Of a stretch of 12,765 nucleotides of DNA, positions 1 to 12,765 are shown in pieces. The DNA comes from a virus (Duplodnaviria; Heunggongvirae; Uroviricota; Caudoviricetes), in IMG/VR virus record IMGVR_UViG_2634166457_000023, positions 1 to 12,765 of that record, one strand, 5' to 3'. Under the pieces are notes generated by a model. The model had not been told where the DNA came from and did not search any database. It saw nothing but the letters and a program-made list of their open reading frames with translations. The number at the start of each line of letters is the position of its first letter. Positions within the stretch are counted from its first letter, which is position 1. The position numbers and the translations under genes are program-made.

Positions 1-1119
1 TCAAATAACCAACTTAACCCATTCCTGACCTCGAGTATCGTTATAGCGATCGGTGGTTGCCTGGACTTTATGTCCTAGTAATGTTTTTGTATCGATACCC
101 TGTGCACGGTACAGCCGTTCTGATAGAGAGCGTTGTTCATGAAATGTTGGCGGAGTTTTTCCTGCTGGTGGAATTATCCCAGCCAGATCCCGTGCTTTGG
201 CAAAGTAGTCGCTCAGGTTGTCTTTACTCATCGGCTTTGGTTGTTTCTGGTGCCGACTATGGATTAGATATGGACTTAATATTCGGTCTCGGCACCCATC
301 AATAACTTCTTTTAACGTTATCCCAATGGCATCACAGCGTAGTGTAAGCGGTAACGCCAGACGCATTCCGGTTTTTCCCTGGGTGATATGCAAGTGTTCG
401 TTCCACACATCTGAAAAACGCATGTGGCAAATGTCATCACGGCGCTGACCAGTAACAATCGCAAGAAGCATTGCGTTACGGATAAAGTGTTTTTCAGGCG
501 TTGCGTTGTAAATTTTTTGCCAGTCTTCCAGGGGGAGCCTGGCTCTGGTTACTTTAGGGATCGGTTTACGGGTAGCCTCCGGAGGATTCCATCCAGGAGG
601 AACTTCCCCTGCATGCTGTGCTTCTTTATAAATATCAACCCATAATCCGCGATTTACTCTCGCTGTGCTGACCATGTCTTTATCCAGCCACTCATCCAGT
701 ATTAATGCAAAGTCTCTTACTTCCAGTTCTTTCAATGGGTGGTTTCCCAGACGGGAAACCAGGTATGCAGCCATTCGAGTTTTTTCTTTGTGAGTTGTAG
801 CTGCAATATCTCCATTTTTCAGTCGCGTGTCCTGTATTTTCAGATATCGATCAACCCATGCCTTTAATCTGATACCCCGACGTTTTGTTGCTGACGGACT
901 TTCATCAATTTTGCGCATGAAATATTCAGCTTCTGCTGCAGCTATTCGCTGATTGGCTGTGGAAGCGATTTTTTCTGCCTTACCTTTGTCTGTTCCGAGT
1001 CCGTGAAATTTTCCAGTCACAGGATTTTTATACTGGTAGTAAACTCTGCCAGTTCTGCGATCAAACTTTTCGTAAAGACCGGCTACGTCAGTGCTGTTTT
1101 TTCGTGGCCTCGGTGACAT
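1..1119 (-). CDS. int: Tyrosine recombinase, lambda-family integrase (372 aa, complete)
   Basis: Full ORF. N-terminal YYQYKNPVTGKFHGLG arm-binding-like segment; catalytic-domain motifs LLAIVTGQRRDDI, PPTFHEQRSLSERLY and LLGHK...TTDRY. These align by eye with lambda Int as I recall it. Confidence 0.9.
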   Translation of the reverse strand: MSPRPRKNSTDVAGLYEKFDRRTGRVYYQYKNPVTGKFHGLGTDKGKAEKIASTANQRIAAAEAEYFMRKIDESPSATKRRGIRLKAWVDRYLKIQDTRLKNGDIAATTHKEKTRMAAYLVSRLGNHPLKELEVRDFALILDEWLDKDMVSTARVNRGLWVDIYKEAQHAGEVPPGWNPPEATRKPIPKVTRARLPLEDWQKIYNATPEKHFIRNAMLLAIVTGQRRDDICHMRFSDVWNEHLHITQGKTGMRLALPLTLRCDAIGITLKEVIDGCRDRILSPYLIHSRHQKQPKPMSKDNLSDYFAKARDLAGIIPPAGKTPPTFHEQRSLSERLYRAQGIDTKTLLGHKVQATTDRYNDTRGQEWVKLVI

Positions 1120-1357
1120 GAGTTAAAATCTCCTTCAGTGTATCATCATCGCCAGTATGAATTTCCGGCGCAATTCCCGTTTCACCAGGTCCAACAAATA
1201 CTGCTCGGCGATCTATCAGCCAACGCCCACGAATTTTTTGTGGTCTTGGAACGATGTATCCTAGTTTTCCGTATTTCACCAGGGTAGTGTTTGTTATTGG
1301 GAGACTGAACCGTTTTGGCTTCCACTCATCGAGCGTTATCAGGTACTGTTCGCTCAT
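1088..1357 (-). CDS. xis: Excisionase-like protein (Xis), 89 aa
   Basis: Small ORF directly upstream of int, overlapping it by 32 bp as in lambda xis-int. ATG at 1357 preceded by GGAG at about 8 nt. Segment LITLDEWKPKRFSLP...RGRWLIDRRAV resembles the lambda Xis N-terminus. The track start at 1366 is a GTG 9 nt further upstream. Confidence 0.65.
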   Translation of the reverse strand: MSEQYLITLDEWKPKRFSLPITNTTLVKYGKLGYIVPRPQKIRGRWLIDRRAVFVGPGETGIAPEIHTGDDDTLKEILTHVTEATKKQH

Positions 1358-1375
1358 GGCTATCACTCCGGAACG

Positions 1376-1407
1376 CGCCAGTTGCAGAATACCAACGACA
1401 ACTGGCG
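1376..1407. other. Inverted repeat CGCCAGTTG / CAACTGGCG (9-bp arms, 14-nt loop) in the exo-xis intergenic spacer
   Basis: Perfect 9-bp inverted repeat read directly at 1376-1384 and 1399-1407. No U-run follows on either strand. Confidence 0.4.
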
Positions 1408-1418
1408 ACGGTTGAACA

Positions 1419-3815
1419 TTAAAAATCAGCCTGACTCGGGATCAGTTTTTGCCAGATAGCTGAAACGTATTTTGCCTGGTAACGAGCGTCATCAAGTGCA
1501 TTATGGCGCTCACCTTCGAATGGGATAGCCGTTCTGGCATCGAAGTCTATGGCTTTCCCCAGCTCAACGATTGTGCATACATCGCGATCGTTGTGGTAGT
1601 GCCAGGGGCAGGGGATACCCTGTCGTTCGTATGAACGGCGTAAAATCACGTTGTCGAAGTTGGCTCCATTTCCCCAGACCTGAACAAAAAATTCACCGGA
1701 GTTTTCGGCGATAAATTCACGCAATTGCAGTAGTGCATCATCTAACGGGATTTCATCGGTCAGAATGGCAGATTGCGCCTCGCGTGATTGCTTAAGCCAC
1801 CATTTAATGGTGTCACGATCAATGACTCCGCCAGCTGTTTCCAGATCGATGGTCTTACTAAATTCCGGTCCCATATCTCCGGTTTGCGGATCGAAAAATA
1901 TTGCACCTATTGAGATAATTGGGGCATCGGGATTTTTTCCCATCGTTTCAAGGTCGATCATCAGATGAATACCCGCTCTGCTGGTGGATGTACTTTCATG
2001 ATGACCGTTCACCTTAATTGGGTGATCTGCCGCCTCGCCAGTTTCATTATCGCTGGCGTGATACTGATCACCGCCAGCGTCCTCCTTATGAAGATGTTCA
2101 TTGCCTTCCATTTCCTCCGGATTTTTTTCCTGAGATTCAGCCTGATTTTCTCCATTGAATGTTTCCTGGTATGTTGTGTTGCCCATTACCGCACCACAAT
2201 CAGGGCAGCTACCCCCGCCAGCCTGACCGCAGGCGGTACAAACTTTTCCTTCTTCCGGTTCGCTGTTCTGATGCAGTTTTTCTTCTGTCTGCTGTTCATC
2301 ATTTTCCGTTTTTTTAACTTCATTTGAGGGGATGTGATGACCGGGAATCCATTTCGGATCATTCGGGTCGCTAATCCCTTCAACGAACTCACCACGTGAT
2401 GCTGCCAGTAATTTGTCCGCATCGATCGGAGTTTTGGGCGGAATGTTTTTTCTGGCTTCGTGGAGTTCTGCCCGCAGTTCCTGGTATTTCGCATCAACAG
2501 AATTTACCTGTGGCTGAGCATCTATCGACGGTGTGTCCTGATGATGTTCAGTTGCATCCGGTTCCACTGCTTCAGGCGTTGTCTGTTCATTTGCCATTGC
2601 GCCAGATGGTTGCAGTTTTTCTTCATCATCCTGTTTTCCTTCTTCTGTTACACGCTGCGGCATCGGGGCAGAGGATCGACCGCAGGCAATATCCACGATT
2701 TCCGGATCAGGGTTGGCATGATCGGTTTCAGTAAGTACCTTGTTCAGATATTCAGTGACATGCGCAGGGATGACCTCGATACCAATTGGTGCTTCTTTCA
2801 CGGATGCAACCACGATGGCGCGGGAATAATCCAGCCCGCCAGGCATGGTGATGAATTTGTCGCGGAAAACAGAAAAGGGCGGTTTATTTTCAGCGATAAT
2901 TTCCTCGACACGTTTAGCGTGTGCAGGATGAAGGTTATAGATGTCCACGTCCATTGAACGGGCCAGTACGCCAGTGGCTACGTCGCGTGCCAGTGATGCC
3001 TGATCGTGGATGAAACCGTCGCCGCGATCGGTAAGGTTCCCGCCGCCAGCATTAGCACCGGAAGCCGTGCGGGTGATACGCGAAACACGATTCCCTTTCA
3101 TCCACTCTTTTGTCAGCAGACCGCGATCGGTGTAGTCAGCGTCCAGGTATGCTTCGATAAAAGCGGTCATCATCCCAAAATCTGAATTTTTCGGATTAGG
3201 GAAAACTTTGTCAGTATCACGCACCAGTTTGTGGAGGTCGCGAATTTCCAGCGGGTCGAGCAGGCTGGTTTTGTGGGAAACAGCCAGGGCAGTAACTGCC
3301 GGTAGTTCTTCATCTCGTGCAATGTGTAATGTCTGGAGTTCGTCGCGTGAAACGTGCGTTACTGGTTTTTCGCTGCCGTGTTGAGCAAGCCAACGAATGG
3401 GCAGTTCCTGACCGGAAACAGGCAGGAGCATGCTCTCCTCAATCTCAGTCATGTCTTCGCCGTTGACGTTGGTATTGTCAGTGCTTGCTGGTTTGTCCTG
3501 AACAGAGGGGGAAGGGCCGATAAATGTCATTGTGATGCCATCTTTCCCGCCTTTTTCATAGCGGTTGCAGAATTCCGTATCAAACACGCCTTCTGGCGGG
3601 AGGTCATCAACAACGGGCAAATTGACGCGGACGGGTTTTTTAAAGTCGTCTTCATCATAATCGTTGTCATCCATTGCGGTAATGCAGCGGGAGATTGCAA
3701 CAGATAATTTTTTTGCTGTAGTCCAGTAAAAACCACCTTTAATTCCCAGGCGTTTTCTTACTTTGTCATTTTTTGCTTCGCAATATAGTGCAAATTCTTC
3801 TTTATCAGTGCTCAT
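1419..3815 (-). CDS. Exodeoxyribonuclease VIII-like protein (798 aa): RecE-like N-terminal region, acidic/Cys-containing linker, C-terminal DEDDh (DnaQ-like) 3'-5' exonuclease domain
   Basis: N-terminal approx 400 aa resemble the non-catalytic N-terminus of E. coli RecE from memory ([12 protein letters not shown]...[21 protein letters not shown]...). The C-terminal approx 190 aa (coords approx 1419-1990) carry DEDDh motifs: IDLETMG (Exo I), [12 protein letters not shown] (Exo II), [13 protein letters not shown] (Exo III). A CTAC...CPDC pair sits in the linker near 2195-2245. Confidence 0.85.
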
Positions 3816-3908
3816 TATTGATAAACCTCATCACAGATTTAAGGGTGAACAAATCTCTGCCATTGCTGACATATAAGAATGAAACTGGATGTTTATTACT
3901 GTGCTGTT

Positions 3909-4100
3909 TTAAAATCCTGCCGGGATTTCGTTATTATCCTGGTGAATAACTTTATCGACCGGATAACAGTTGCCTGGAATTTTCTGTTCGGTTGCTGCTG
4001 CCATACATTCCTGCATTGTTCTGTGAATACTGACTGCAATATCAACTGGCTCTCCGGAAACAAGAAAAATCGTCAGAATAAGTGCAAATACTGGATTCAT
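3909..4100 (-). CDS. ydfD: YdfD-like small membrane/lysis protein (63 aa)
   Basis: ATG at 4100 overlaps the upstream stop (ATGA). AAAGGA lies 8 nt upstream. N-terminal hydrophobic helix MNPVFALILTIFLVSG. Size and position after dicB match Qin ydfD from memory. Confidence 0.6.
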   Translation of the reverse strand: MNPVFALILTIFLVSGEPVDIAVSIHRTMQECMAAATEQKIPGNCYPVDKVIHQDNNEIPAGF

Positions 4101-4285
4101 TGTGCACATCCTTTTGGCATCAGACGTAAACGGGCCAGCATTGAAACAATGCATACTTTATTTAATAACTCCCGTTCGTGTTTTCTTTTGTTAATGGCCT
4201 CTTCAGTAAATACAGGATTACTGATAGTGACACCAATTTCAAAAAAACCTTCAGACGTATTAACGTTTGGTAATAACATTTTCAT
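4097..4285 (-). CDS. dicB: Cell-division inhibitor DicB (62 aa)
   Basis: Product MKMLLPNVNTSEGFFEIGVTISNPVFTEEAINKRKHERELLNKVCIVSMLARLRLMPKGCAQ closely matches my recollection of E. coli DicB. GAGGG lies 7 nt upstream of the ATG at 4285. Lies immediately downstream of the DicF-like sequence. Confidence 0.75.
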   Translation of the reverse strand: MKMLLPNVNTSEGFFEIGVTISNPVFTEEAINKRKHERELLNKVCIVSMLARLRLMPKGCAQ

Positions 4286-4454
4286 TATCGCGCCCTCAAC
4301 AATGAGTTTTGTGATGCGGTGCCTGGTGCCTCCAGGTGACGTTAACCAGTTAACAATTAACGCCGGATATAGAGAATCCACCCATAACACTGTTTTTGGT
4401 TTTAACTGTTCCGCGTGCGCTCAGCCGCATTCACCGCATCACAAAATTCACTTT

Positions 4455-4512
4455 AAAAAGGGCGGTAGAGCAGTCACGGAGTAAAACTGATACCGCCAAA
4501 CGTCACCAGAAA
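4455..4512 (-). ncRNA. dicF: DicF small RNA (antisense inhibitor of ftsZ translation), with 3' terminator-like hairpin and U-run
   Basis: Minus-strand sequence UUUCUGGUGACGUUUGGCGGUAUCAGUUUUACUCCGUGACUGCUCUACCGCCCUUUUU matches my memory of E. coli DicF almost base for base. It ends in a GGCGGUA...UACCGCC stem plus U5. Located upstream of dicB as in Qin. Confidence 0.75.
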
Positions 4513-4846
4513 ATTGATAACAGAGGGCGTTGCAGCGGGGTTGTCACTTAAGCGTATGGTCAACCTGACAACCCGGTGTCCTCAACGGGGAAGGAATAAC
4601 CCCGCCATACTTACCGCCGCGCCATTTCGCGGAGTGCCACAACCGGAAGCGCACGGTCGACGAAAATTTAACGACAGGCTGTCTATGAACCAGCTACCTC
4701 GCCGTGCGCTTTCGCGTTATGGTCTGACTTTTCAGGGAAATATCCTTTCAGTAAACTGTCAGTGCCGGATGCTCACCCGTGTCCGGCGCACGCACTCCAC
4801 CTCACCCGTGGAGAACTCCTTAATCACCAACCCTCAGGAGGGTGAA

Positions 4847-5122
4847 ATGTCGACTGAAAATGATGAAATCATTAACTCCCTGATACGCCAGATTAATAAT
4901 TTTGATAAAGCATTGCAGCATGCTGCGGCGCGTAGTGATATAACTCTTTTAGCAATTTCATTTCTTGCATCTGTTATGGATAAAAATGAAGTCGTACGAC
5001 AGAGTCTTGTTGATTATATCGACTCGCTTCAACCCGGCACTTTCAATCATGAGAGCTTCAATCATGAGAAAGAGCATGTTAAATCTGTAATTAATTCTCT
5101 TGTTTTGAATCAAAAGAATTAA
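4847..5122 (+). CDS. Hypothetical protein (91 aa), AT-rich cargo gene convergent with the leftward operon
   Basis: ATG at 4847 preceded by GGAGG with a 5-nt spacer. Product looks helical with an in-frame FNHES/FNHEK repeat. Marked drop in GC relative to flanks. The upstream part of track ORF 4514..5122 is Arg-rich and treated as non-coding. Confidence 0.5.
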   Translation: MSTENDEIINSLIRQINNFDKALQHAAARSDITLLAISFLASVMDKNEVVRQSLVDYIDSLQPGTFNHESFNHEKEHVKSVINSLVLNQKN

Positions 5123-5420
5123 TGCTTTTTGTTGCAAAGTAATTTTCAAGGGGGTCTATTCGAATCCCTTTCTTTTTCATTAACAAGCCAAACCCCTTAT
5201 CAATGATGTCCATTAATTCCAGGAAGTATTTTTCATGTAAATCCTGGTTATCAGAGAGCTGCTTCTCTTCGTACAGCCCGATAAAGGCACGACGCACGTT
5301 ACCGGATATAGTATCGATGGTTTCTTTTTCTACGGTACTAAGGTCAAGAGTCGCCAGTTGAGAACGAACTATATTCGATGCCATTTCTTGGAATGGTATT
5401 GGTAAATCTTTAAATTCCAT
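5091..5420 (-). CDS. Hypothetical protein (109 aa), AT-rich cargo gene in the leftward operon
   Basis: ATG at 5420 preceded by GAGG at 6 nt. Protein-like composition with no family recognised. Its 3' end overlaps the convergent gene at 4847-5122 by 32 bp. Confidence 0.55.
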   Translation of the reverse strand: MEFKDLPIPFQEMASNIVRSQLATLDLSTVEKETIDTISGNVRRAFIGLYEEKQLSDNQDLHEKYFLELMDIIDKGFGLLMKKKGIRIDPLENYFATKSINSFDSKQEN

Positions 5421-5455
5421 CGTCAACCTCATCAGTCAGTTATTCACTCGGATAC

Positions 5456-5662
5456 TTAACCATTCTGGCAACATTTAATGCCGCCGCTTCTGTCAGGCTG
5501 GCGATGCTCTGGTCCAGTTCGGCCATTTTTTTTGGCCTGTAGCGTCTTGGAATCATTGACCCATTTCAGGTCCTGCGCAGCCTTAACTTTTTGTTTCATC
5601 CACTCATAAATCTCATCATCGGTATAGCCTGGTGCGATGATGATGGGTTCTGGTTTCTGCAT
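5456..5662 (-). CDS. ydfC: YdfC-like small protein (68 aa as read); probably frame-disrupted at an A8 tract
   Basis: ATG at 5662 with GAGGAA RBS. After the homopolymer (plus T8 at 5526-5533) the read frame encodes low-complexity NGRTGPEHRQPDRSGG, while the neighbouring frame encodes helix-like MAELDQSIASLTEAAALNVARMVKYPSE ending at 5440. Position after ydfB matches Qin ydfC. Confidence 0.5.
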   Translation of the reverse strand: MQKPEPIIIAPGYTDDEIYEWMKQKVKAAQDLKWVNDSKTLQAKKNGRTGPEHRQPDRSGGIKCCQNG

Positions 5663-5691
5663 AATGATTCCTCGCGGTGCTGTTTCGCTTA

Positions 5692-5820
5692 TTAGCCGTT
5701 AGATTTTGCCGAACTGGAAAGCGCCTCTTTAAACTCACTAAAGCTGAGAGCGTCTTCGCCTTCGGCAAGGCCTTCGAAGTATTCTTCGTAAGCCTTTTCC
5801 ATGATTGCGTCGAAATCCAT
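5692..5820 (-). CDS. ydfB: YdfB-like small acidic protein (42 aa)
   Basis: ORF below the track threshold, found by hand: MDFDAIMEKAYEEYFEGLAEGEDALSFSEFKEALSSSAKSNG. Strong AGGTGA RBS. Lies between the YdfA-like and YdfC-like genes. The track ORF 5616..5825 is in a different frame. Confidence 0.55.
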   Translation of the reverse strand: MDFDAIMEKAYEEYFEGLAEGEDALSFSEFKEALSSSAKSNG

Positions 5821-5821
5821 A

Positions 5822-5977
5822 TCACTCACCTGAGTTTCTTTCCAGCCAGCGACGCGCGCCAGATTCGGTTTTAAACGTGGTGCTTTTGGTATACGTCATC
5901 GCGGTGAACGTACCGTCCTGGTTTGGGAACACGCCGCACACCAGAGATTCGTTGTTGCCAAGATCGATAGTATCCAT
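5822..5977 (-). CDS. ydfA: YdfA/YdaF-like small protein (51 aa, DUF1391-like)
   Basis: Hand-found ORF MDTIDLGNNESLVCGVFPNQDGTFTAMTYTKSTTFKTESGARRWLERNSGE. GAGG RBS 7 nt upstream. First gene downstream of the PL-like promoter. Family assignment is from memory. Confidence 0.6.
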   Translation of the reverse strand: MDTIDLGNNESLVCGVFPNQDGTFTAMTYTKSTTFKTESGARRWLERNSGE

Positions 5978-6149
5978 GCTGACCTCATTTCCCCTTAACG
6001 CCGGGGTAGCGGAACAAAAACCTGCTGCATAGTTAAAAGTTGAACCCCGCCGTCACTTTCGAATGCCTCGGGCTGGCTACATTGACCCCTGACCACTGCC
6101 TGGTAACTCGAAGTATTGCCCGGCGTTCTGTGGGGCGGGGTGGGTTGGT

Positions 6150-6200
6150 ATCTTTAGTTTAATAAACATTAAACTTAAGTCAAGCAAAAACTAAACCGCG
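6150..6200 (-). promoter_or_regulatory. OL/PL-like operator-promoter for the leftward early operon
   Basis: Minus-strand -35 TTGACT (plus 6178-6183) flanked by half-sites TTTAGT (6153-6158) and ACTAAA (6190-6195). The 11-mer GTTTAATAAAC is the exact reverse complement of GTTTATTAAAC in the OR region. Confidence 0.5.
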
Positions 6201-6214
6201 GGGCGTAACAAACA

Positions 6215-6237
6215 CAACGCTTTTGATAAAGTCGTTG
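6215..6237 (-). terminator. Weak terminator-like hairpin (CAACG...CGTTG) downstream of the toxin gene
   Basis: 5-bp inverted repeat 6215-6219 / 6233-6237 with a 13-nt loop, followed on the minus strand by UGUUUGUU. Sits between the toxin stop (6268) and the PL region. Confidence 0.25.
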
Positions 6238-6267
6238 CGGTTGTTATGTTTCTATTGGTAGTGAAAG

Positions 6268-6546
6268 TTAGGGAAACTGGCGTCTTGCGTGGATCACGTT
6301 TACTACTTCAACGCTTGATGTTGTTACGCGGTATAGAATTATATAGTTAGGGTGGGCCACAATCTCACGCAAGCCAGGTACTCTGTCGCTTGGTGGGTAT
6401 AAATACGGATGTTCGGATAATGGCAGCACACAACCCCTTAATCGCTGCCATAAGCGTTCAGCCGCATCTATGTCGAAACGAGCAATATAACTAGTTATAT
6501 CATCTAGGTCGGTATCTGCGCTTTCAAGCCATAACACGGGTAACAT
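6268..6546 (-). CDS. parE: ParE-family toxin (92 aa), ParE2-like, of a three-gene repressor-antitoxin-toxin operon
   Basis: C-terminal LREIVAHPNYIILYRV...VEVVNVIHARRQFP is typical of ParE/RelE-fold toxins. ATG at 6546 lies 1 nt after the antitoxin stop. The track start at 6642 is rejected. Confidence 0.8.
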   Translation of the reverse strand: MLPVLWLESADTDLDDITSYIARFDIDAAERLWQRLRGCVLPLSEHPYLYPPSDRVPGLREIVAHPNYIILYRVTTSSVEVVNVIHARRQFP

Positions 6547-6547
6547 T

Positions 6548-6739
6548 TTACTGCTTGCTCCGTTCCTTCCGCATTTTAGCAAAGCGTTCTGCCATTCTGC
6601 GCTCAACTTCGTCATGGGGAATTGCTGGGCGCGGATCTGCAAGGCTCGTTGCTACTTTCGCACGCAGCCATTCGTTGTAACTGTTTTCTTGTTCAATGGT
6701 TTCAAATTCAGAAACCATTGGTGAAAGGGCTCTATTCAT
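6548..6739 (-). CDS. Small antitoxin (63 aa), PaaA-like partner of the ParE toxin
   Basis: ATG at 6739 preceded by GGAGGA at 5 nt. Size and position match the PaaA-type antitoxins of paaR-paaA-parE operons described in E. coli O157 prophages (from memory). Starts 20 nt after the repressor stop. Confidence 0.65.
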   Translation of the reverse strand: MNRALSPMVSEFETIEQENSYNEWLRAKVATSLADPRPAIPHDEVERRMAERFAKMRKERSKQ

Positions 6740-6759
6740 GTTTCCTCCGGTTTTATAAC

Positions 6760-7131
6760 TCAGGCGCGGCGGCATTTTTGCGCCGCAATCCATCTCGCTA
6801 TGAGATCTTCCATTGATTCTTTTTTCTGCTTTAACTCGTTGATTATCTGGCGTTGCTCATCCTCAGGGAAGGCTGAAAAAATCTGCAATAATTCCAGTTG
6901 ATTAGACGTTAACCCTGCATGTGGTGGAGAAACCTCCGGTTGTTCTGCGTATTCCGCATCCAGATACCCTTCCGGCATCCCGTATGTTTGCTCTATTCTT
7001 CTGGCAGCCTTTTCTCCAAACGAGGCTCTCCCACTCATTAGTTGAGATAGGTAGCTCTTCTCTTTGGGTGGCAGAGTTTTATCTTTAAACCACTCCTTGA
7101 GACGTAAACGGCGAATTTCTTTTTTTTGCAT
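6760..7131 (-). CDS. HTH (XRE-type) prophage repressor, CI/DicA-like, lacking a peptidase S24 domain (123 aa); possibly also the PaaR-type regulator
   Basis: N-terminal HTH KEKSYLSQLMSGRASFGEKAARRIEQTYGMP. C-terminal LTSNQLELLQIFSAFPEDEQ resembles DicA as I recall it. Divergent from the cro-like gene. ATG at 7131 has no SD but sits 6 nt after a GATAAT -10, so likely leaderless like lambda cI. The track GTG start at 7194 is rejected. Confidence 0.75.
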   Translation of the reverse strand: MQKKEIRRLRLKEWFKDKTLPPKEKSYLSQLMSGRASFGEKAARRIEQTYGMPEGYLDAEYAEQPEVSPPHAGLTSNQLELLQIFSAFPEDEQRQIINELKQKKESMEDLIARWIAAQKCRRA

Positions 7132-7137
7132 GTGGTA

Positions 7138-7220
7138 ATTATCTTTAGTAATCACTAAACAAGCAAATACTTGACTTAATGGTTTATTAAACACTAAACT
7201 CGCAAAAAAACACTAAACCG
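7138..7220. promoter_or_regulatory. OR-like region with back-to-back divergent promoters (PRM-like leftward, PR-like rightward) and three ACTAAA operator half-site positions
   Basis: Palindrome TTTAGTaatcACTAAA at 7144-7159 sits in the spacer of the PRM-like promoter (-35 TTGCTT as plus 7161-7166, -10 GATAAT as plus 7138-7143). PR-like -35 TTGACT at 7171-7176 with -10 near 7194-7200. ACTAAA recurs at 7193-7198 and 7212-7217. Confidence 0.55.
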
Positions 7221-7228
7221 AGGAAGGT

Positions 7229-7531
7229 ATGACATTAAAAGAGTTTATTAAATCATTGAGGGTTGGTGATGCTAAGAAATTCGCGGCCAGACTAGGTGTA
7301 TCGCCATCTTACTTATCGCAAATGGCGTCTGGACGAGCAGCTATATCTCCAACCCGCGCCCTTATGATCGAATCTGCGACGGAAGGCCAAGTAAGTAGGG
7401 CGGAGCTACGACCCCATGATTGGGAGCTTATTTGGCCTGAGTATGCGAGCGGCATTCGTTTGGGGCAAACGCATGTAGTTCATGCTGAAGGTGATTGTAG
7501 AGCATGCTTATCTGATGGAGTTGATTCATGA
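7229..7531 (+). CDS. ydaS: Cro-like HTH protein, YdaS family (100 aa)
   Basis: GAGGAAGG RBS. HTH AKKFAARLGVSPSYLSQMASG and ELRPHDWELIWPE motif typical of YdaS-type proteins. First gene of the rightward operon. Confidence 0.75.
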   Translation: MTLKEFIKSLRVGDAKKFAARLGVSPSYLSQMASGRAAISPTRALMIESATEGQVSRAELRPHDWELIWPEYASGIRLGQTHVVHAEGDCRACLSDGVDS

Positions 7532-7953
7532 AAATCAAGCATGAACACATCCGCATGGCGATGAATGCCTGGGCGCATCCTGATGGCGAAAAAGTACCGG
7601 CTGCGAAAATTACCAAAGCGTATTTCGAACTGGGAATGACGTTCCCGGAACTGTATGACGACAGCCATCCCGAAGCCCTGGCTCGCAATACCCAGAAAAT
7701 TTTCCGCTGGGTAGAGAAAGATACCCCTGATGCTGTTGAAAAAATTCAGGCGTTGTTACCTGCGATCGAAAAGGCAATGCCGCCTCTGCTGGTGGCCCGA
7801 ATGCGCAGTCACAGTTCAGCCTATTTTCGGGAACTGCTGGAGACGCGGGAGCGGCTGGTGAGGGATGCAGATGATTTTATTGCGGTGGCAATTACTGGTT
7901 TCAACCAGATTAATCGCGGTGGCCCGGCAGGAAATGCCGTGGTGATGCACTAA
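7528..7953 (+). CDS. ydaT: YdaT-family protein (141 aa), CII-like position
   Basis: ATGA overlap with the ydaS-like stop. Size and position match Rac YdaT. Family assignment is from memory. Confidence 0.7.
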   Translation: MKIKHEHIRMAMNAWAHPDGEKVPAAKITKAYFELGMTFPELYDDSHPEALARNTQKIFRWVEKDTPDAVEKIQALLPAIEKAMPPLLVARMRSHSSAYFRELLETRERLVRDADDFIAVAITGFNQINRGGPAGNAVVMH

Positions 7954-7976
7954 AAGCACGGTGTTCGGGGTTTTTT

Positions 7977-8909
7977 ATGAGCAGCAAGCTTCATGGTCTT
8001 GTCTGGGAAGGGTGCGCCTTCACCGGCATGATCTTATCCAGGGTGGCAGTGATGGCTCGTCTTGCAGACTACAGCAATGATGAAGGTGTGTCATGGCCTG
8101 CAGTAGAGACCATTCGTCGTCAGATTGGGGCAAAGAGTGAATCAACGGTTAAAGCGGCGATAGCGGAACTGGAAAAGAGCGGCTGGCTGACAAAGGAAGA
8201 GCGTAAGGTTGGTGGACGTAACGTAAGCAATATCTACCGGCTTAATGTGGAAAAACTCGAAGCTGCAGCAGCGGCAGCGCGAGAGGCATATAAACCGAAA
8301 AGAAAAATTAGCCCGGCAAAAAATGACCCGTTAACGGTTGACCCGTCAAATTTTGATGGATCAACCGTTGATAAAAAACGGTCGGTTAGGGGGGCGATGA
8401 TTGACCCCGATCCGTCAGTATTAAAATCTGATCCGTCAGATAAAAGATCTTCTTGTCCGGACGCTTCGCAACCGGACCCGCAGACGGCTGAACAGGATTT
8501 TTTAACCCGACACCCTGACGCGGTTGTGTTCAGTGCGAAAAAACGCCAGTGGGGAAGTCAGGAAGATTTGGCGTGCGCACAGTGGATCTGGGGACGAATC
8601 GTGAGTCTTTACGAGCAGGCAGCCAGCGATGATGGCGAGATCACTCGACCGAAAGAACCAAACTGGACCGCGTGGGCCAATGACGTGCGCACAATGCGGA
8701 TGCTGGATGGCAGAACTCACAGACAAATTTGCGAAATGTTTGGGCGGGTACAGCGGGATCCATTCTGGGTAAAAAACATCATGAGCCCGTCAAAGCTCCG
8801 CGAAAAATGGGACGAACTGGTCATCCGCCTGGGGCGTTCGCCTGTACAGCGTTGTGTGAATCACATTTCTGAACCGGACACCGAAATTCCACCGGGCTTC
8901 AGGGGGTAA
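7977..8909 (+). CDS. Phage replication initiation protein (310 aa): N-terminal HTH, repeat-rich middle, C-terminal DnaT-like region
   Basis: N-terminal VSWPAVETIRRQIGAKSESTVKAAIAELEKSGWL is typical of phage replication-initiator HTH domains. The middle encodes DP/DPS peptide repeats over DNA iterons. Lies in the lambda O position. Confidence 0.7.
   Translation: MSSKLHGLVWEGCAFTGMILSRVAVMARLADYSNDEGVSWPAVETIRRQIGAKSESTVKAAIAELEKSGWLTKEERKVGGRNVSNIYRLNVEKLEAAAAAAREAYKPKRKISPAKNDPLTVDPSNFDGSTVDKKRSVRGAMIDPDPSVLKSDPSDKRSSCPDASQPDPQTAEQDFLTRHPDAVVFSAKKRQWGSQEDLACAQWIWGRIVSLYEQAASDDGEITRPKEPNWTAWANDVRTMRMLDGRTHRQICEMFGRVQRDPFWVKNIMSPSKLREKWDELVIRLGRSPVQRCVNHISEPDTEIPPGFRG
8325..8442. repeat. Iteron-like repeats and palindromes inside the replication gene (putative origin of replication)
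   Basis: Four copies of GAYCCGTYAR (8325-8337, 8340-8350, 8409-8420, 8430-8440). Palindromes CCGTTAACGG, TTGACCCGTCAA and ATCTGATCCGTCAGAT. A-rich tract just upstream at 8291-8324. Confidence 0.4.
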
Positions 8910-8949
8910 GTGTTTATTTCAGGTCATGAGGTAATTTTCAGGAGGACTT

Positions 8950-9369
8950 GTGGCAAAAGTTTTTACACAAGAAGAGCGGGAAAAAATTAAAGGGCAGGTT
9001 GTTGAACTCGTACGCCAGAGTGGGCGCGAGACGTTACGACAACTGGAAGCTAAAACCGGGGCAACAAGATATCTGATGAGCGTTCTGGCCAGAGAACTGG
9101 TTGCCAGTGGCGATGTATACAACTCCGGCTACGGGTTATTCCCGTCTGAACAGGCTCGTAAGGACTGGCAAAACGCCCGCAAAAAACTCTCGAGGGCAAA
9201 GCTGAAGAAACCATCTGTGGTTGATCCGGACCTTATCTGGTCATTACCAGACGGAGAGATACGTCGCTATGACAGACGTCTGAACATAATCTGTCGCGAG
9301 TGCCGGAAGAGTGAGGTTATGCAGCGAGTTTTGGTGTTTTACAGGGGTAATAACGGATCAACGATATGA
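8950..9369 (+). CDS. Hypothetical protein (139 aa), possible winged-helix N-terminus
   Basis: GTG start at 8950 with GGAGG 4 nt upstream. The stop overlaps the next start (ATGA). No family recognised. Confidence 0.55.
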   Translation: MAKVFTQEEREKIKGQVVELVRQSGRETLRQLEAKTGATRYLMSVLARELVASGDVYNSGYGLFPSEQARKDWQNARKKLSRAKLKKPSVVDPDLIWSLPDGEIRRYDRRLNIICRECRKSEVMQRVLVFYRGNNGSTI

Positions 9370-9659
9370 GGGTTTATATTGCAGGGCTGATGACCGGGTA
9401 TAAAAATTTCAACCGTGAGGCATTTCACAAGGCGGAAGAGGAGCTGAAGCGGGAAGGGTATACAGTCTTAAACCCGGCAGTACTTCCGGACGGGCTGACA
9501 CAGCCACACTACATGGATATCTGCATGGCAATGATTCGTTGTGTGGATGCGATTTACATGCTGAAAGGTTGGCAGCGGTCAGCAGGCGCTAAGGCAGAGC
9601 TGGCACTGGCGGAGAAGCTGGGGCATGCAGTTATTTTTCAGGAGGTAATCAGTGAGTGA
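9366..9659 (+). CDS. DUF4406-family protein (97 aa), nucleoside 2-deoxyribosyltransferase-like fold
   Basis: MRVYIAGLMTGYKNFNREAFHKAEEELKREGYTVLNPA...DAIYMLKGWQRSAGAKAELALAEKLG matches the DUF4406 pattern from memory. Confidence 0.75.
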   Translation: MRVYIAGLMTGYKNFNREAFHKAEEELKREGYTVLNPAVLPDGLTQPHYMDICMAMIRCVDAIYMLKGWQRSAGAKAELALAEKLGHAVIFQEVISE

Positions 9660-10069
9660 AATTAATTACCAGGCACTGCGTGTTGCAGGCATTTGCATCA
9701 AAGGAGAGTGACGTGGAAATAAAACCAGAAGATGAGTTAAGTAATATTGTTTTATTTCCTGTAAAAGAGGATGACCCGCGTAATCAGGTTAATTTTCTTT
9801 ATGAGCCATCGGAAAGACCATATTGCCATCACGCTTCTGTCCGGGTTGATGAAAAAGAGCGTCAGGTCCGATGCAAAATCTGCGGTGCGGTTGTGGAGCC
9901 ATTTGACTGGATGCTCTCTGTGGCGAAAAGAGAAACCAGACTGGCAGATGATGTAAGGCTCTTGCGCCAGGAGGAACGGGAAAGGCGGAAAAATATAGAA
10001 AAGTTAATTCAGATTGAGCGTAACGCGAAAGCGCGGATACGCAGGGCGACAAAATCCAGAACTGAATAA
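9656..10069 (+). CDS. Hypothetical Cys/His-containing protein with basic coiled-coil C-terminus (137 aa from GTG 9656; 118 aa if from GTG 9713)
   Basis: CHH...CKIC motif then a Arg/Glu-rich helical tail. GTG 9656 overlaps the upstream stop (GTGA), with GGAGG 10 nt upstream. Alternative GTG 9713 has AAGGAG at 6 nt. Confidence 0.55.
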   Translation: MKLITRHCVLQAFASKESDVEIKPEDELSNIVLFPVKEDDPRNQVNFLYEPSERPYCHHASVRVDEKERQVRCKICGAVVEPFDWMLSVAKRETRLADDVRLLRQEERERRKNIEKLIQIERNAKARIRRATKSRTE

Positions 10070-10161
10070 TTAAATTTAGTAGTGTTAAAAATTTAATCCT
10101 TAACCGGAGGGATTTCTGTACCCTCAGAACATCAGGAGGCAGCCCGAAAGGGCGGTAAGAA

Positions 10162-10380
10162 ATGGCTACATTATTCAGAAAAGAATATCTGCGAAGAAGC
10201 AGGGCTATAGAACTCTTGTTTCTCATTCTGTTTATCGTGTTGATGATACCGATATCCCCGTTAATTCTGGTATGGGGAATTGGGAAAATAATTGAGCCAG
10301 TTATTGAATTGTATACCGACGTTGTATGGGCGTCGTTCAACACACTGCACAACAAAATCAACCCATATAAGGAAAGCTGA
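10162..10380 (+). CDS. Small membrane protein (72 aa), one predicted transmembrane helix
   Basis: Hydrophobic stretch LLFLILFIVLMIPISPLILVWGIG. The next gene starts 1 nt after its stop. RBS region is structured (see hairpin finding). Confidence 0.5.
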   Translation: MATLFRKEYLRRSRAIELLFLILFIVLMIPISPLILVWGIGKIIEPVIELYTDVVWASFNTLHNKINPYKES

Positions 10381-10381
10381 T

Positions 10382-10747
10382 ATGGCACTGACGAAAAAAC
10401 AACGCGCAGAACTGCGCATGAAGTTCGGTGGTCGCTGCGCTTATTGCGGCTGCGAACTTGGCGAAAAGTGGCATGCAGACCATGTCAAACCGGTCATTCG
10501 TTTTGATGGAAATATGCTTCACCAGGAACGTGACGATATATCCAACATGGTTCCGGCATGCCACCCATGCAATCTGCACAAGCATTGCAGTAGCCTGGAA
10601 GATTATCGGCGAATTATCAGTGATGGTCGTCGTGAATTCCTTGCGTCCGGGAAAGGCAAAGCGCTGGTTCGTATGGGATTGGTTGAAATGAAATCTGACC
10701 CGGTTGTGTTCTGGTTTGAAAAATATCAAGAAGGGGCTACAGCATGA
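10382..10747 (+). CDS. HNH endonuclease (121 aa)
   Basis: [20 protein letters not shown] ... [10 protein letters not shown]: Cys pairs around an H-N-H core. AAGGAAA RBS. The track start at 10292 is rejected as a non-coding extension. Confidence 0.8.
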
Positions 10748-11091
10748 CCACTTTTACCAGAGAGCAGTTAATAGCTCACGCAGAGGAGACTATTGAAGCA
10801 CAGAGACTGTGCATACCGGGCACAATCGACCATGACATCATCCGCACATATAAGATGGATATTGCTGTTCTGGAAATCGCACTGGCATCGCTGGCAGCAG
10901 AGCCAGCCGGTAAATTGCATGAATACAAACCAGTGGGATATCAGCGTCTGGTCGATGAGTTAACCATGCTGGTAAAGCAGTTAACCTGGCAACTGAGGAA
11001 AGCGAAGTCAGACTGCAAATTACCGGATAAGGCGATGAGTTATCTGGAGCGGAACGGACTGATAAGCGTGGAAGATGATATTTTACGATGA
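10744..11091 (+). CDS. Hypothetical phage protein (115 aa)
   Basis: ATGA overlap with the HNH stop. Protein-like composition with no family recognised. Confidence 0.55.
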
Positions 11092-11171
11092 CCTGGCCTG
11101 AGGCATTCACAACGGTAGGAATTGCAATGGCGGTGGCGCTGGTGGTGTATTCGATTTGCCGCTGGGGATAA
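11088..11171 (+). CDS. Possible tiny hydrophobic peptide (27 aa)
   Basis: [31 protein letters not shown] overlap with the upstream stop. Ends just before a terminator-like hairpin. Below normal gene-calling thresholds. Confidence 0.3.
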
Positions 11172-11181
11172 ATCGCCGAAA

Positions 11182-11215
11182 AAAGATCCCGACACAAACA
11201 TGAGCCGGGATCTTT
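11182..11215. terminator. Bidirectional terminator-like hairpin between convergent transcription units
   Basis: 10-bp perfect inverted repeat AAAGATCCCG / CGGGATCTTT with a 14-nt loop. T/A-rich flanks give a U-run on either strand. Lies between the rightward operon end (11171) and the convergent ParE gene end (11296). Confidence 0.45.
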
Positions 11216-11295
11216 GATTTATATAGCCTACGAATCCGCCAGTAAGAGAGGGGGCGGACGGTTTATTCTAACACCGGAATGATGTGGGTAAAAGT

Positions 11296-11595
11296 TTATA
11301 AGAAATCGGTTTCATAACTTTGCCCACCATGATAGATACCGACAATAAAGACTTTTCTGCCATCAACGGCAAAAGCAATAATCGTTCTGTGGCGGAAATG
11401 AGTTACCCGCATCCCCTGGCGAATATCATCGCGTTTATTGCCCCGATGCGGGAATGTAGAAAACCCATCAAGATAATCAAGAAGCGCATTGGCATAATTG
11501 TCAGCAATGACGTTCCCTGCTTTCTCCGTTATATATCTGTGCAGGTTGATTATTTGTTGTTCGGCCTCAGGAGTAATGATGACTTCATATGTCAT
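11296..11595 (-). CDS. parE: ParE/RelE-family toxin (99 aa)
   Basis: Size, composition and position (start 5 nt after the stop of a ribbon-helix-helix antitoxin) are typical of ParE. C-terminal RKVFIVGIYHGGQ-type strand motif. Confidence 0.8.
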   Translation of the reverse strand: MTYEVIITPEAEQQIINLHRYITEKAGNVIADNYANALLDYLDGFSTFPHRGNKRDDIRQGMRVTHFRHRTIIAFAVDGRKVFIVGIYHGGQSYETDFL

Positions 11596-11600
11596 GCAGA

Positions 11601-11858
11601 TTACTTCCCGGATCGAATCGCGGCGCGAACCTGTGAAATGGAGCGTCCGTTGTTTGGATTTTCACGGATAGAATCAAGAGAGGGGGCGGCTGAATGCGTT
11701 AACCACGCTTCGATTGCTTTATCGCGCTCATTCAGTGCGCGAAGCCCTTCACGAATGACCTCGCTTTCTGAAGCATAGGCACCGGAAGCCACACGGGCGC
11801 GCACCATGTCAGCCATCTCGTTAGTTAATGTAATGCTGAATTGTTGGGTTGTACGCAT
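11601..11858 (-). CDS. parD: ParD-family antitoxin, ribbon-helix-helix (85 aa)
   Basis: FSITLTNEMADMVRARVASGAYASESEVIREGLRAL is a classic ParD/RHH signature. ATG at 11858 with GTGAGG RBS. The track start at 11921 is rejected. Confidence 0.8.
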   Translation of the reverse strand: MRTTQQFSITLTNEMADMVRARVASGAYASESEVIREGLRALNERDKAIEAWLTHSAAPSLDSIRENPNNGRSISQVRAAIRSGK

Positions 11859-11886
11859 GGTAAACCTCACGGAGTAGGATAGAACA

Positions 11887-11924
11887 CTATTCGATGATAG
11901 CACGCTGCCTGTTGACGACAACAG
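11887..11924 (-). promoter_or_regulatory. Putative parDE promoter with palindromic operator
   Basis: Minus-strand -35 TTGTCG (plus 11916-11921), 16-nt spacer, -10 TATCAT (plus 11894-11899). The 16-bp palindrome CTGTTGacgaCAACAG (11909-11924) overlaps the -35. Confidence 0.4.
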
Positions 11925-11993
11925 AAATCAGAGACAATATTGCCGCACGCCAGCCTGAACAACTGGCACCTGCTGCGCCAGCAGAGAAAACAG

Positions 11994-12272
11994 ATGGCGC
12001 ACAAGACCAAATTACACAATTCTGATAATTCAGCCGCCTTTGCCAGCAGGCACGGGCGGCGTTCTCATGCATTCAAATATGACTGGTACCAGCATGACCC
12101 ATGCACTGAAGAACAGGCAGAGTGGCTGATTCAGAACTACCGCAGACGTGGTTACGAGTTTCAGAAAGACCTCAGTCTTGACTTCCGACACTGGATAATT
12201 TCAGTCAGGCTCCCTTATTCCGAACGCCCACCGCGTCCGTCCCGCACATTCCAGCAACGGATCTGGAGGTAA
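11994..12272 (+). CDS. Hypothetical protein (92 aa from ATG 11994)
   Basis: ORF with a weak RBS. The track start at 11940 is a TTG. Its stop is followed by GGAGG and the next ORF start. No family recognised. Confidence 0.4.
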   Translation: MAHKTKLHNSDNSAAFASRHGRRSHAFKYDWYQHDPCTEEQAEWLIQNYRRRGYEFQKDLSLDFRHWIISVRLPYSERPPRPSRTFQQRIWR

Positions 12273-12273
12273 C

Positions 12274-12765
12274 GTGCGGGTATTGCTTCGACCTGTTCTG
12301 GTACCGGAACTCGGGCTGGTGGTCCTTAAGCCGGGCCGTGAGTCCATGCAGGTATTTCATAATCACCGGGTGCTGGTGGAGTCAGAACCGAAAAGCATGC
12401 TCGGTCTGCCGTCCGGAGTCGTCCCTGCCGTTCGCCAGCCGCTGGCGGAGGATAAATCATTACTGCCATTTTTCAGCAATGAGCGTGTGATTCGTGCTGC
12501 TGGCGGCGCTGGCGCACTGTCTGACTGGCTCTTGCGTCATGTTAAATCCTGCCAGTGGCCTCATGGTGATTATCACCACAGCGAAACCGTCATACATCGT
12601 TACGGTACCGGCGCGATGGTGTTGTGCTGGCACTGCGACAACCAGCTGCGTGACCAGACATCCGAATCACTCGGGCAACTTGCTCATCAAAACCTGTCAG
12701 CATGGATGATTGACGTCATACGCTATGCAATGAATGGCACACAGGAGCGTGAATTATCGCTGGCT
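12274..12765 (+). CDS. Hypothetical Cys/His-rich phage protein, 3'-truncated by the window edge (possibly DUF968-like)
   Basis: Frame open from GTG 12274 (GGAGG 4 nt upstream) to the window end. Alternative ATG at 12346. Motifs CQWPHGDYHH and CWHCDNQ suggest metal binding. Family guess is low confidence. Confidence 0.5.
   Translation, partial: MRVLLRPVLVPELGLVVLKPGRESMQVFHNHRVLVESEPKSMLGLPSGVVPAVRQPLAEDKSLLPFFSNERVIRAAGGAGALSDWLLRHVKSCQWPHGDYHHSETVIHRYGTGAMVLCWHCDNQLRDQTSESLGQLAHQNLSAWMIDVIRYAMNGTQERELSLA

Follow-up and report, generated by a model that had tools for sequence, protein, structure and literature searches.

The subject of this analysis is an exonuclease gene in a stretch of Caudoviricetes DNA, positions 1-12,765 of the IMG/VR record IMGVR_UViG_2634166457_000023, which was analysed over its full 12,765 nt and is referred to here as the window. 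The gene is an intact open reading frame (ORF) at 1419-3815 on the minus strand, and the ORF list and its translation give a product of 798 amino acids (aa) with an ATG start. Matches to the Pfam families PF06630 and PF16473, together with a 100% identical protein at NCBI (P0001), mark this as a gene in which a non-catalytic scaffold of RecE type is joined to a 3'-5' exonuclease of DEDDh type. We consider it probable that the product is a lone, DexA-like exonuclease of DNA 3' ends that belongs to the lytic programme and is built on a RecE-type scaffold; since it would act without a single-strand annealing partner, it would not be a recombinase of the RecET/Red type.

The DEDDh domain and the RecE-type scaffold

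A profile search with Pfam placed an Rv2179c-like/DexA-type DEDDh 3'-5' exonuclease domain at aa 617-788 (1452-1967, minus strand), where PF16473 was matched over profile positions 2-177 of 177 with an E-value of 1.3e-66 and a score of 224 bits (cutoff 27), and the generic DEDDh family PF00929 (RNase_T) gave a weak match in the same protein. Alignment with T4 DexA paired the complete DEDDh pentad D621, E623, D721, H771 and D776 (minus-strand codons at 1953-1955, 1947-1949, 1653-1655, 1503-1505 and 1488-1490, respectively) with D7, E9, D119, H186 and D191 of the phage enzyme, and the same five residues were invariant in alignments across T4-like DexA and five standalone phage homologues. When the Protein Data Bank was searched by sequence, the only solved structures matched were 8KEL (9.4e-6) and 8KEN, which are deposited as a 227-aa "Exodeoxyribonuclease" and which we identify as T4 DexA from the residue numbering and from the S87A/D90A variant described in PMC12153337. 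By homology, the domain should have metal-dependent 3'-5' exonuclease activity. The kinship with T4 DexA thus lies in the family and in the five aligned catalytic residues, whereas identity is about 25-27% and DexA is a standalone protein with extra loops, to which the window protein adds a scaffold of 600 aa. In the same way, the window protein shares a full-length, high-scoring profile match with the PF16473 family and the standalone phage homologues of PHROG 255, but carries the domain as the C-terminal module of a protein of about 800 aa. Searches against PHROGs matched several families named "exonuclease", which correspond to separate modules of the 798-aa protein.

Pairwise ratios of nonsynonymous to synonymous substitution rates (dN/dS) were low in the DEDDh domain, at 0.10-0.15 over five comparisons with relatives from E. 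coli, phage mEp460, Salmonella and Citrobacter, and higher, at 0.25-0.49, in the scaffold regions. Because of these low values we regard the DEDDh domain as being under purifying selection and presumably as an active enzyme.

The remainder of the protein corresponds to RecE without its catalytic part. A match to PF06630, the Exonuc_VIII family of RecE N-termini, was obtained at aa 57-189 (3249-3647, minus strand; 8.7e-36), and a BLASTP comparison with K-12 RecE aligned aa 58-602 (2010-3644, minus strand) to RecE residues 50-592, the non-catalytic part, at 76% identity, with similarity ending at aa 602. The NCBIfam RecE equivalog NF007259 matched aa 1-598 over profile positions 1-600 of 877 with 1032 bits, which lies below its equivalog cutoff of 1269, and the megablast match to K-12 recE ended at about nucleotide 1792 of the gene, that is, at about aa 598. 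In an AlphaFold2 model of the N-terminal 470 aa, three segments were predicted with confidence, and a fold search with these segments against solved structures gave no significant match. An alpha/beta domain at aa 1-100 (3516-3815, minus strand), for which no informative fold match was found, is followed by two predicted helical domains at aa 130-250 and 265-385 (2661-3428, minus strand; predicted local distance difference test, pLDDT, mostly 75-95), which form the best-conserved part of the scaffold.

Downstream of these domains, cysteines at positions 526, 529, 537 and 540 form a zinc-ribbon-like CxxC-x7-CxxC motif (aa 526-540; 2196-2240, minus strand), and an acidic low-complexity linker with 23% Asp plus Glu spans aa 547-616 (1968-2177, minus strand) and holds the junction between RecE homology and DEDDh domain, at about aa 598-616. 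K-12 RecE carries CNACGQTGGDNCPDCG at the place of the zinc ribbon in the BLASTP alignment, and the CxxC-x7-CxxC motif is also common to K-12 RecE and the mEp460 exonuclease. Judged from these alignments, the zinc ribbon and the acidic linker are inherited RecE parts and not products of the fusion. We considered the zinc ribbon as a defining feature of the group and dropped it, as the motif is missing from many of the more distant homologues, whether of the DEDDh or of the PD-(D/E)XK type. An earlier note on this DNA, made from the letters alone, had read the C-terminal domain as DEDDh-type, and here it was right: the PF16473 match is full-length, all five catalytic residues are in place and the profile search did not refute the reading. 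The RecE-like N-terminus that it described was likewise found, although over some 545 aa (residues 58-602 by BLASTP) and not the approximately 400 aa it had given, and the CxxC pair and acidic linker that it had placed between two fused parts do exist but lie inside the RecE-homologous part and occur in K-12 RecE as well.

Among known systems, the RecE of the K-12 Rac prophage is a close point of comparison for the scaffold. Both proteins contain the region of aa 58-602 with PF06630, zinc ribbon and acidic linker, and in both cases the gene is the last one of large size in the leftward early operon and lies close to xis-int. They differ in that the window protein has a DEDDh domain where RecE has its PD-(D/E)XK nuclease, PF12684/DUF3799, at residues ~606-866; no Pfam match to this nuclease was found in the window protein. 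The polarity expected of the window protein is accordingly opposite to that of RecE, if homology is a guide, and the window is without the recT, ralR and rcbA genes of the Rac locus.

Nuclease type, recT and N-terminal modules among relatives

The excisionase gene (1088-1366, minus strand; annotated as 'excisionase' in a relative) lies directly downstream of the exonuclease gene with no recT between them, and is followed by a tyrosine integrase gene at the prophage end (1-1119, minus strand), the ORF of which reaches the window edge and the counterpart of which in a relative is annotated as a phage integrase adjoining potC. Profile searches of all window ORFs, leftward and rightward, detected no annealase family. 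The closest complete relative, a prophage between potB and potC of E. coli 2022H047 that encodes RusA, has no RecT, Bet or Erf annotated anywhere along its length. Altogether, the order exonuclease-xis-int without an annealase was found in six annotated contexts: the window, E. coli 2022H047, phages mEp460 and vB_EcoS-640R1, a Salmonella prophage and a Citrobacter prophage. We also fetched flanks of up to 6 kb around 80 IMG/VR loci with DEDDh domains 93-96% identical to that of the window and searched them by tblastn. RecT and the RecE nuclease were found at none of the 80, in a search that covered these two proteins, with RecT as the only annealase type looked for; most of the contigs stop 1.4-2.3 kb past the stop codon, which leaves room for xis and int only. 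On the other hand, in the relatives of PD-(D/E)XK type that we examined, in K-12 Rac, Citrobacter and Salmonella, recT comes directly after the gene (3 of 3), so that over nine annotated contexts the presence of RecT strictly co-varies with the PD-(D/E)XK version. Because recT adjoins genes of the PD-(D/E)XK type only, we take it that nuclease type and recT move together, and that one scaffold gene can receive either cassette at its 3' end.

A two-component recombinase (RecET, lambda Red) has an annealase gene of RecT, Bet, Erf or Rad52-like type beside its exonuclease gene or in the same operon, and no such gene was recognised in the window. The earlier note had stated that the window holds no partner annealase, which agrees with our negative profile searches of all ORFs, and had argued from the 3'-5' polarity that classical RecET-type recombination is improbable, a view that the context supports: xis and int come next, and RecT is missing from the six contexts and the 80 loci. 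One detail of it needs amending, since the leftward ORFs between 3909 and 6000, given as 109 aa or smaller, reach 113 aa when the largest is counted from its first ATG, and 109 when it is counted from residue 5, where the PHROG match starts. The strict co-variation of nuclease type and recT amounts to a natural experiment on how recombination modules are assembled and may help to reveal what the RecE N-terminus does.

The N-terminal module varies as well. The mEp460 exonuclease (823 aa) has only aa ~465-798 in common with the window protein, including a DEDDh domain that is 96% identical, and its N-terminal ~460 aa are unrelated to it and without PF06630. It is this N-terminus that the majority of close relatives carry (60 of the 80 IMG/VR loci). 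Exonucleases of the mEp460/CP-933P type resemble the window protein in the mid segment, zinc ribbon, linker and DEDDh domain and in the gene order int-xis-exo-DUF1482-dicB, but have an N-terminal module of their own. A different N-terminal module is present in the close relatives from mEp460 (L003:7001-9472, minus strand) and Citrobacter (L015:7001-9688), and PF27432 (YdfE_C) was found in some relatives. As some DEDDh relatives carry this family, ydfE of the K-12 Qin prophage is probably a truncated remnant of such an exonuclease gene. In the Salmonella relative (L014), the DEDDh domain is 96% identical to that of the window while the N-terminal 385 aa are only 53% identical, a disparity which indicates that genes otherwise far apart in sequence have recently swapped the nuclease cassette.

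In a library of representatives at 50% identity, 11,421 matches to the query were obtained at E<=1e-3, mostly standalone DEDDh proteins of about 180-200 aa. Among the clusters of long proteins with homology to the RecE N-terminus (RecE-N), about 16 carry the DEDDh domain, about 12 the RecE nuclease and about 18 neither. Five members of 716-814 aa (P0160, P0163, P0177, P0205 and P0229) have RecE-N homology, with PF06630 in four of them, and no recognised C-terminal nuclease domain. Ten RecE-N proteins without either nuclease domain yielded PF06630 alone, plus one PF12684 match below threshold, and many RecE-N proteins with PF06630 alone are labelled partial. Proteins of this kind could represent a third type of cassette or truncated gene calls.

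Standalone relatives of about 190 aa are 32-59% identical and come from Escherichia phage LLS and from Providencia, Xanthomonas, Vibrio and Pseudomonas phages; a homologue in a P2-like Klebsiella phage showed 34% identity by tblastn. Across temperate and lytic phages, the standalone genes keep company with early genes or genes of DNA metabolism. In the temperate phage LLS the standalone gene directly adjoins xis-int. In the better-annotated records of the lytic Providencia, Xanthomonas, Vibrio and Pseudomonas phages it lies among DNA-metabolism genes, with no annealase annotated near it. This P2-like homologue, from Klebsiella phage ST16-OXA48phi5.4 (L006:3995-4561, plus strand), reads MIDLINVS where the family has D-x-E; lacking the glutamate of the first motif, it may be catalytically inactive.

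The gene is by no means rare. The identical protein at NCBI is named "exonuclease [Escherichia coli]", the combination of PF06630 and PF16473 was present in 120 of 120 relatives among the matches listed (82-100% identity; 8,000 scored), and every named relative among these matches goes by exonuclease or by 3'-5' exoribonuclease. We found DNA of the DEDDh domain in 4,046 of 5,426 complete E. coli genomes (75%), at 8,056 places and up to seven per genome; the canonical RecE nuclease segment was found in 1,730 of the same 5,426 (32%). In E. coli, then, the RecE scaffold is paired more often with the DEDDh form. In the survey by Majorek et al. 2014 (PMC3985635), "Exodeoxyribonuclease VIII enzymes" already appear as a cluster of DEDDh proteins, and our literature searches found no experimental or functional study of the fusion of RecE scaffold and DEDDh domain. 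The gene, its family, its architecture and its exact sequence are in public databases, and we are not dealing with a new kind of system; the novelty that the earlier note had implied was not borne out, the architecture being catalogued and extremely common in E. coli. These records call for caution in annotation transfer, as many of them say "exodeoxyribonuclease VIII" although the RecE nuclease and RecT are absent and the opposite polarity is to be expected.

Proposed role and competing explanations

The window covers that half of a lambdoid prophage which lies towards int, and from the repressor side the gene order runs DicF, DicB, DUF1482, exonuclease, xis, int. DUF1482 (3909-4154) and DicB (4097-4390) are encoded directly upstream on the minus strand (3909-4390; both by Pfam), preceded by a full-length DicF small RNA just upstream of dicB (4460-4511, minus strand; Rfam RF00039, 74 bits where the gathering score is 48). 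DUF1482 and the exonuclease gene are separated by 93 bp (3816-3908), in which a crude scan of the minus strand found no promoter of sigma70-like type. Because of its position in the leftward early operon and the lack of a promoter-like site in this gap, we expect the gene to be expressed after induction. Taken together, these observations suggest the following course of events, in which domain identity, intact catalytic residues, purifying selection, lack of RecT and operon position are seen directly, while we infer the polarity, the DNA substrate, the timing and the biological role. The exonuclease would be made with the early-left operon upon induction or infection, and not in the repressed lysogen. 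Its first ~600 residues are the non-catalytic RecE scaffold, made up of the PF06630 domain, a pair of helical domains, the zinc ribbon and the acidic linker, with the DexA/Rv2179c-family DEDDh domain placed where the PD-(D/E)XK 5'-3' nuclease of RecE would start. This domain would remove nucleotides from 3'-OH ends in a metal-dependent manner, as its homologues lead us to predict, and without a single-strand annealing partner the enzyme most probably processes or degrades the 3' ends of DNA in the manner of DexA while the phage develops lytically. As is established for Red/RecET resection, annealases and RecA need 3' tails, which a 3'-5' exonuclease would remove and not create.

Several points weigh against this interpretation. 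The PF16473 family is named after an exoribonuclease, and the substrate could be RNA. For the timing of expression, gene order and the crude promoter scan are the only evidence. The AlphaFold2 model in which we looked for the RNase H-like exonuclease fold of the DEDDh domain, built from a 17-sequence alignment, was poor (mean pLDDT 54); a Foldseek search with this model returned a 3'-exonuclease as best match, but at E=0.056, which is not significant, and we did not count it as evidence. Our profile searches could have missed an annealase whose family they do not recognise, and for one homologue, EcD, a different role, in defence against T4, has been reported (PMC12153337).

EcD is a DexA homologue of E. 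coli that digests T4 DNA and protects cells when plasmid-borne, and DexA homologues are most frequent in Escherichia (PMC12153337). The window gene might likewise serve in HREX-type defence or superinfection exclusion, its DEDDh domain selectively digesting the hydroxymethylcytosine DNA of incoming T-even phages and so protecting the lysogen. EcD sets a precedent for this, the window domain is a DexA-family DEDDh exonuclease encoded in E. coli as well, T4 DexA is its only sequence match in the Protein Data Bank, and the gene is prophage-borne and very widespread. We nonetheless think this role unlikely. The residues to which that paper assigns recognition of 5-hydroxymethylcytosine are not conserved, W152 of DexA being replaced by H741, in an alignment anchored by an adjacent conserved N-x-R-D motif, and D169 by A755, which is aligned less securely; conversely, the tetramer aspartate that is said to be lost in EcD, where it is Ala, is kept here (D90 of DexA corresponds to D693, with moderate confidence at this low identity). 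EcD is also a different protein, a standalone domain whose cloned ORF, to judge from the cloning primers, starts MIDTET and has no large N-terminal scaffold. The window gene sits behind DicB in the early operon, which is repressed in the lysogen, and has no promoter-like site to itself, a position that suggests lytic-phase expression, and PADLOC returned just a weak, generic match to a CRISPR-associated DEDDh protein. A search for EcD (HAK9828821.1) in viral contigs by means of its primer 20-mers gave one chance match without the forward primer. Rather unlikely, too, is an exoribonuclease that trims or degrades the 3' ends of RNA, be it transcripts of host or phage, primers or small RNAs, and not of DNA. 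Its appeal comes from names, the best Pfam family being the 'Rv2179c-like 3'-5' exoribonuclease domain' and many database entries reading '3'-5' exoribonuclease', but such names are transferred by homology, and the only solved structure matched by sequence is T4 DexA, a 3'-5' DNA exonuclease (PMC12153337). Moreover, the domain takes the place of a DNA exonuclease on the RecE scaffold, and its standalone homologues lie among genes of DNA replication and nucleotide metabolism.

The retention of the whole RecE scaffold and of the RecE operon position could point to a part in homologous recombination, either with host proteins (RecA/RecFOR, a RusA-type resolvase) or with an unrecognised annealase elsewhere in the prophage; RusA is encoded by the related prophage of E. 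coli 2022H047, and according to the literature T4 DexA has a part in intron homing, which depends on recombination. We hold this to be very unlikely, however, as a 3'-5' exonuclease would strip the 3' tails in question, no annealase family is found in the window or in the complete related prophage, RecT is at none of the 80 loci, and in the nine annotated contexts RecT goes strictly with the PD-(D/E)XK version. Finally, the gene might be a decaying, non-functional chimera left after deletion of the RecE nuclease domain and recT. Many prophage elements are cryptic, and K-12 Qin ydfE, in view of PF27432 in relatives, seems to be the remnant of a related gene. Yet ORFs of about 790-900 aa are intact in E. 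coli, Salmonella, Citrobacter and phage records, mEp460 among them, the DEDDh domain combines intact catalytic residues with low dN/dS, and the roughly 16 clusters that join RecE-N homology to a C-terminal DEDDh domain are distinct at 50% identity. We therefore rejected the pseudogene reading on the grounds of dN/dS and intact ORFs, and give it hardly any credence.

To our knowledge, no role has been established for the ~600-residue N-terminal region of RecE. This region invites a more speculative thought. It may conceivably be a targeting or assembly scaffold that is indifferent to the nuclease it carries, into which lambdoid phages plug either a 5'-3' PD-(D/E)XK nuclease together with RecT or, by itself, a DEDDh nuclease of 3'-5' polarity. 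In this latter form, the protein would act on the same cellular target but do another job there, one that needs no annealase. Equally tentative candidates for this job are destruction of the 3' tails of competing or host DNA, anti-recombination, anti-defence and exclusion of modified phages. If this scaffold idea is true, the natural domain swap offers a handle on what the RecE N-terminus binds.

Other genes in the window

Apart from integrase, excisionase, exonuclease, DUF1482, DicB and DicF, the leftward genes comprise small ORFs without assigned function, DUF1391, a ParE/PaaA2 pair and the repressor, and the succession of DicF and dicB in the leftward operon is as in the K-12 Qin prophage. 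The ParE/PaaA2 toxin-antitoxin pair (6268-6642 and 6548-6793, minus strand) lies between the repressor and the rest of the operon. Opposite the leftward operon, two plus-strand ORFs of 201-202 aa are probably spurious: that at 4514-5122 has no Pfam or PHROG match, and that at 3879-4484 overlaps the DUF1482 and DicB genes.

The rightward genes encode a regulator of YdaS/Cro-like type, YdaT, an HTH_36 protein at the position of the replication initiator, DUF977, DUF4406, a zinc-ribbon protein and an HNH endonuclease, along with a ParE/ParD pair. In the replication-proximal region, the DUF4406 protein (9366-9659, plus strand; Pfam 4e-37) is followed by the zinc-ribbon protein (9656-10069, plus strand), and neither matched a defence model. 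The ORF of the HNH endonuclease (10292-10747, plus strand) gave weak PADLOC matches to PtuB of the Septu system, the best at 2.7e-8, and no PtuA-like ATPase adjoins it. The ParE/ParD toxin-antitoxin pair (11296-11595 and 11601-11921, minus strand) is encoded inside this rightward block on the opposite strand.

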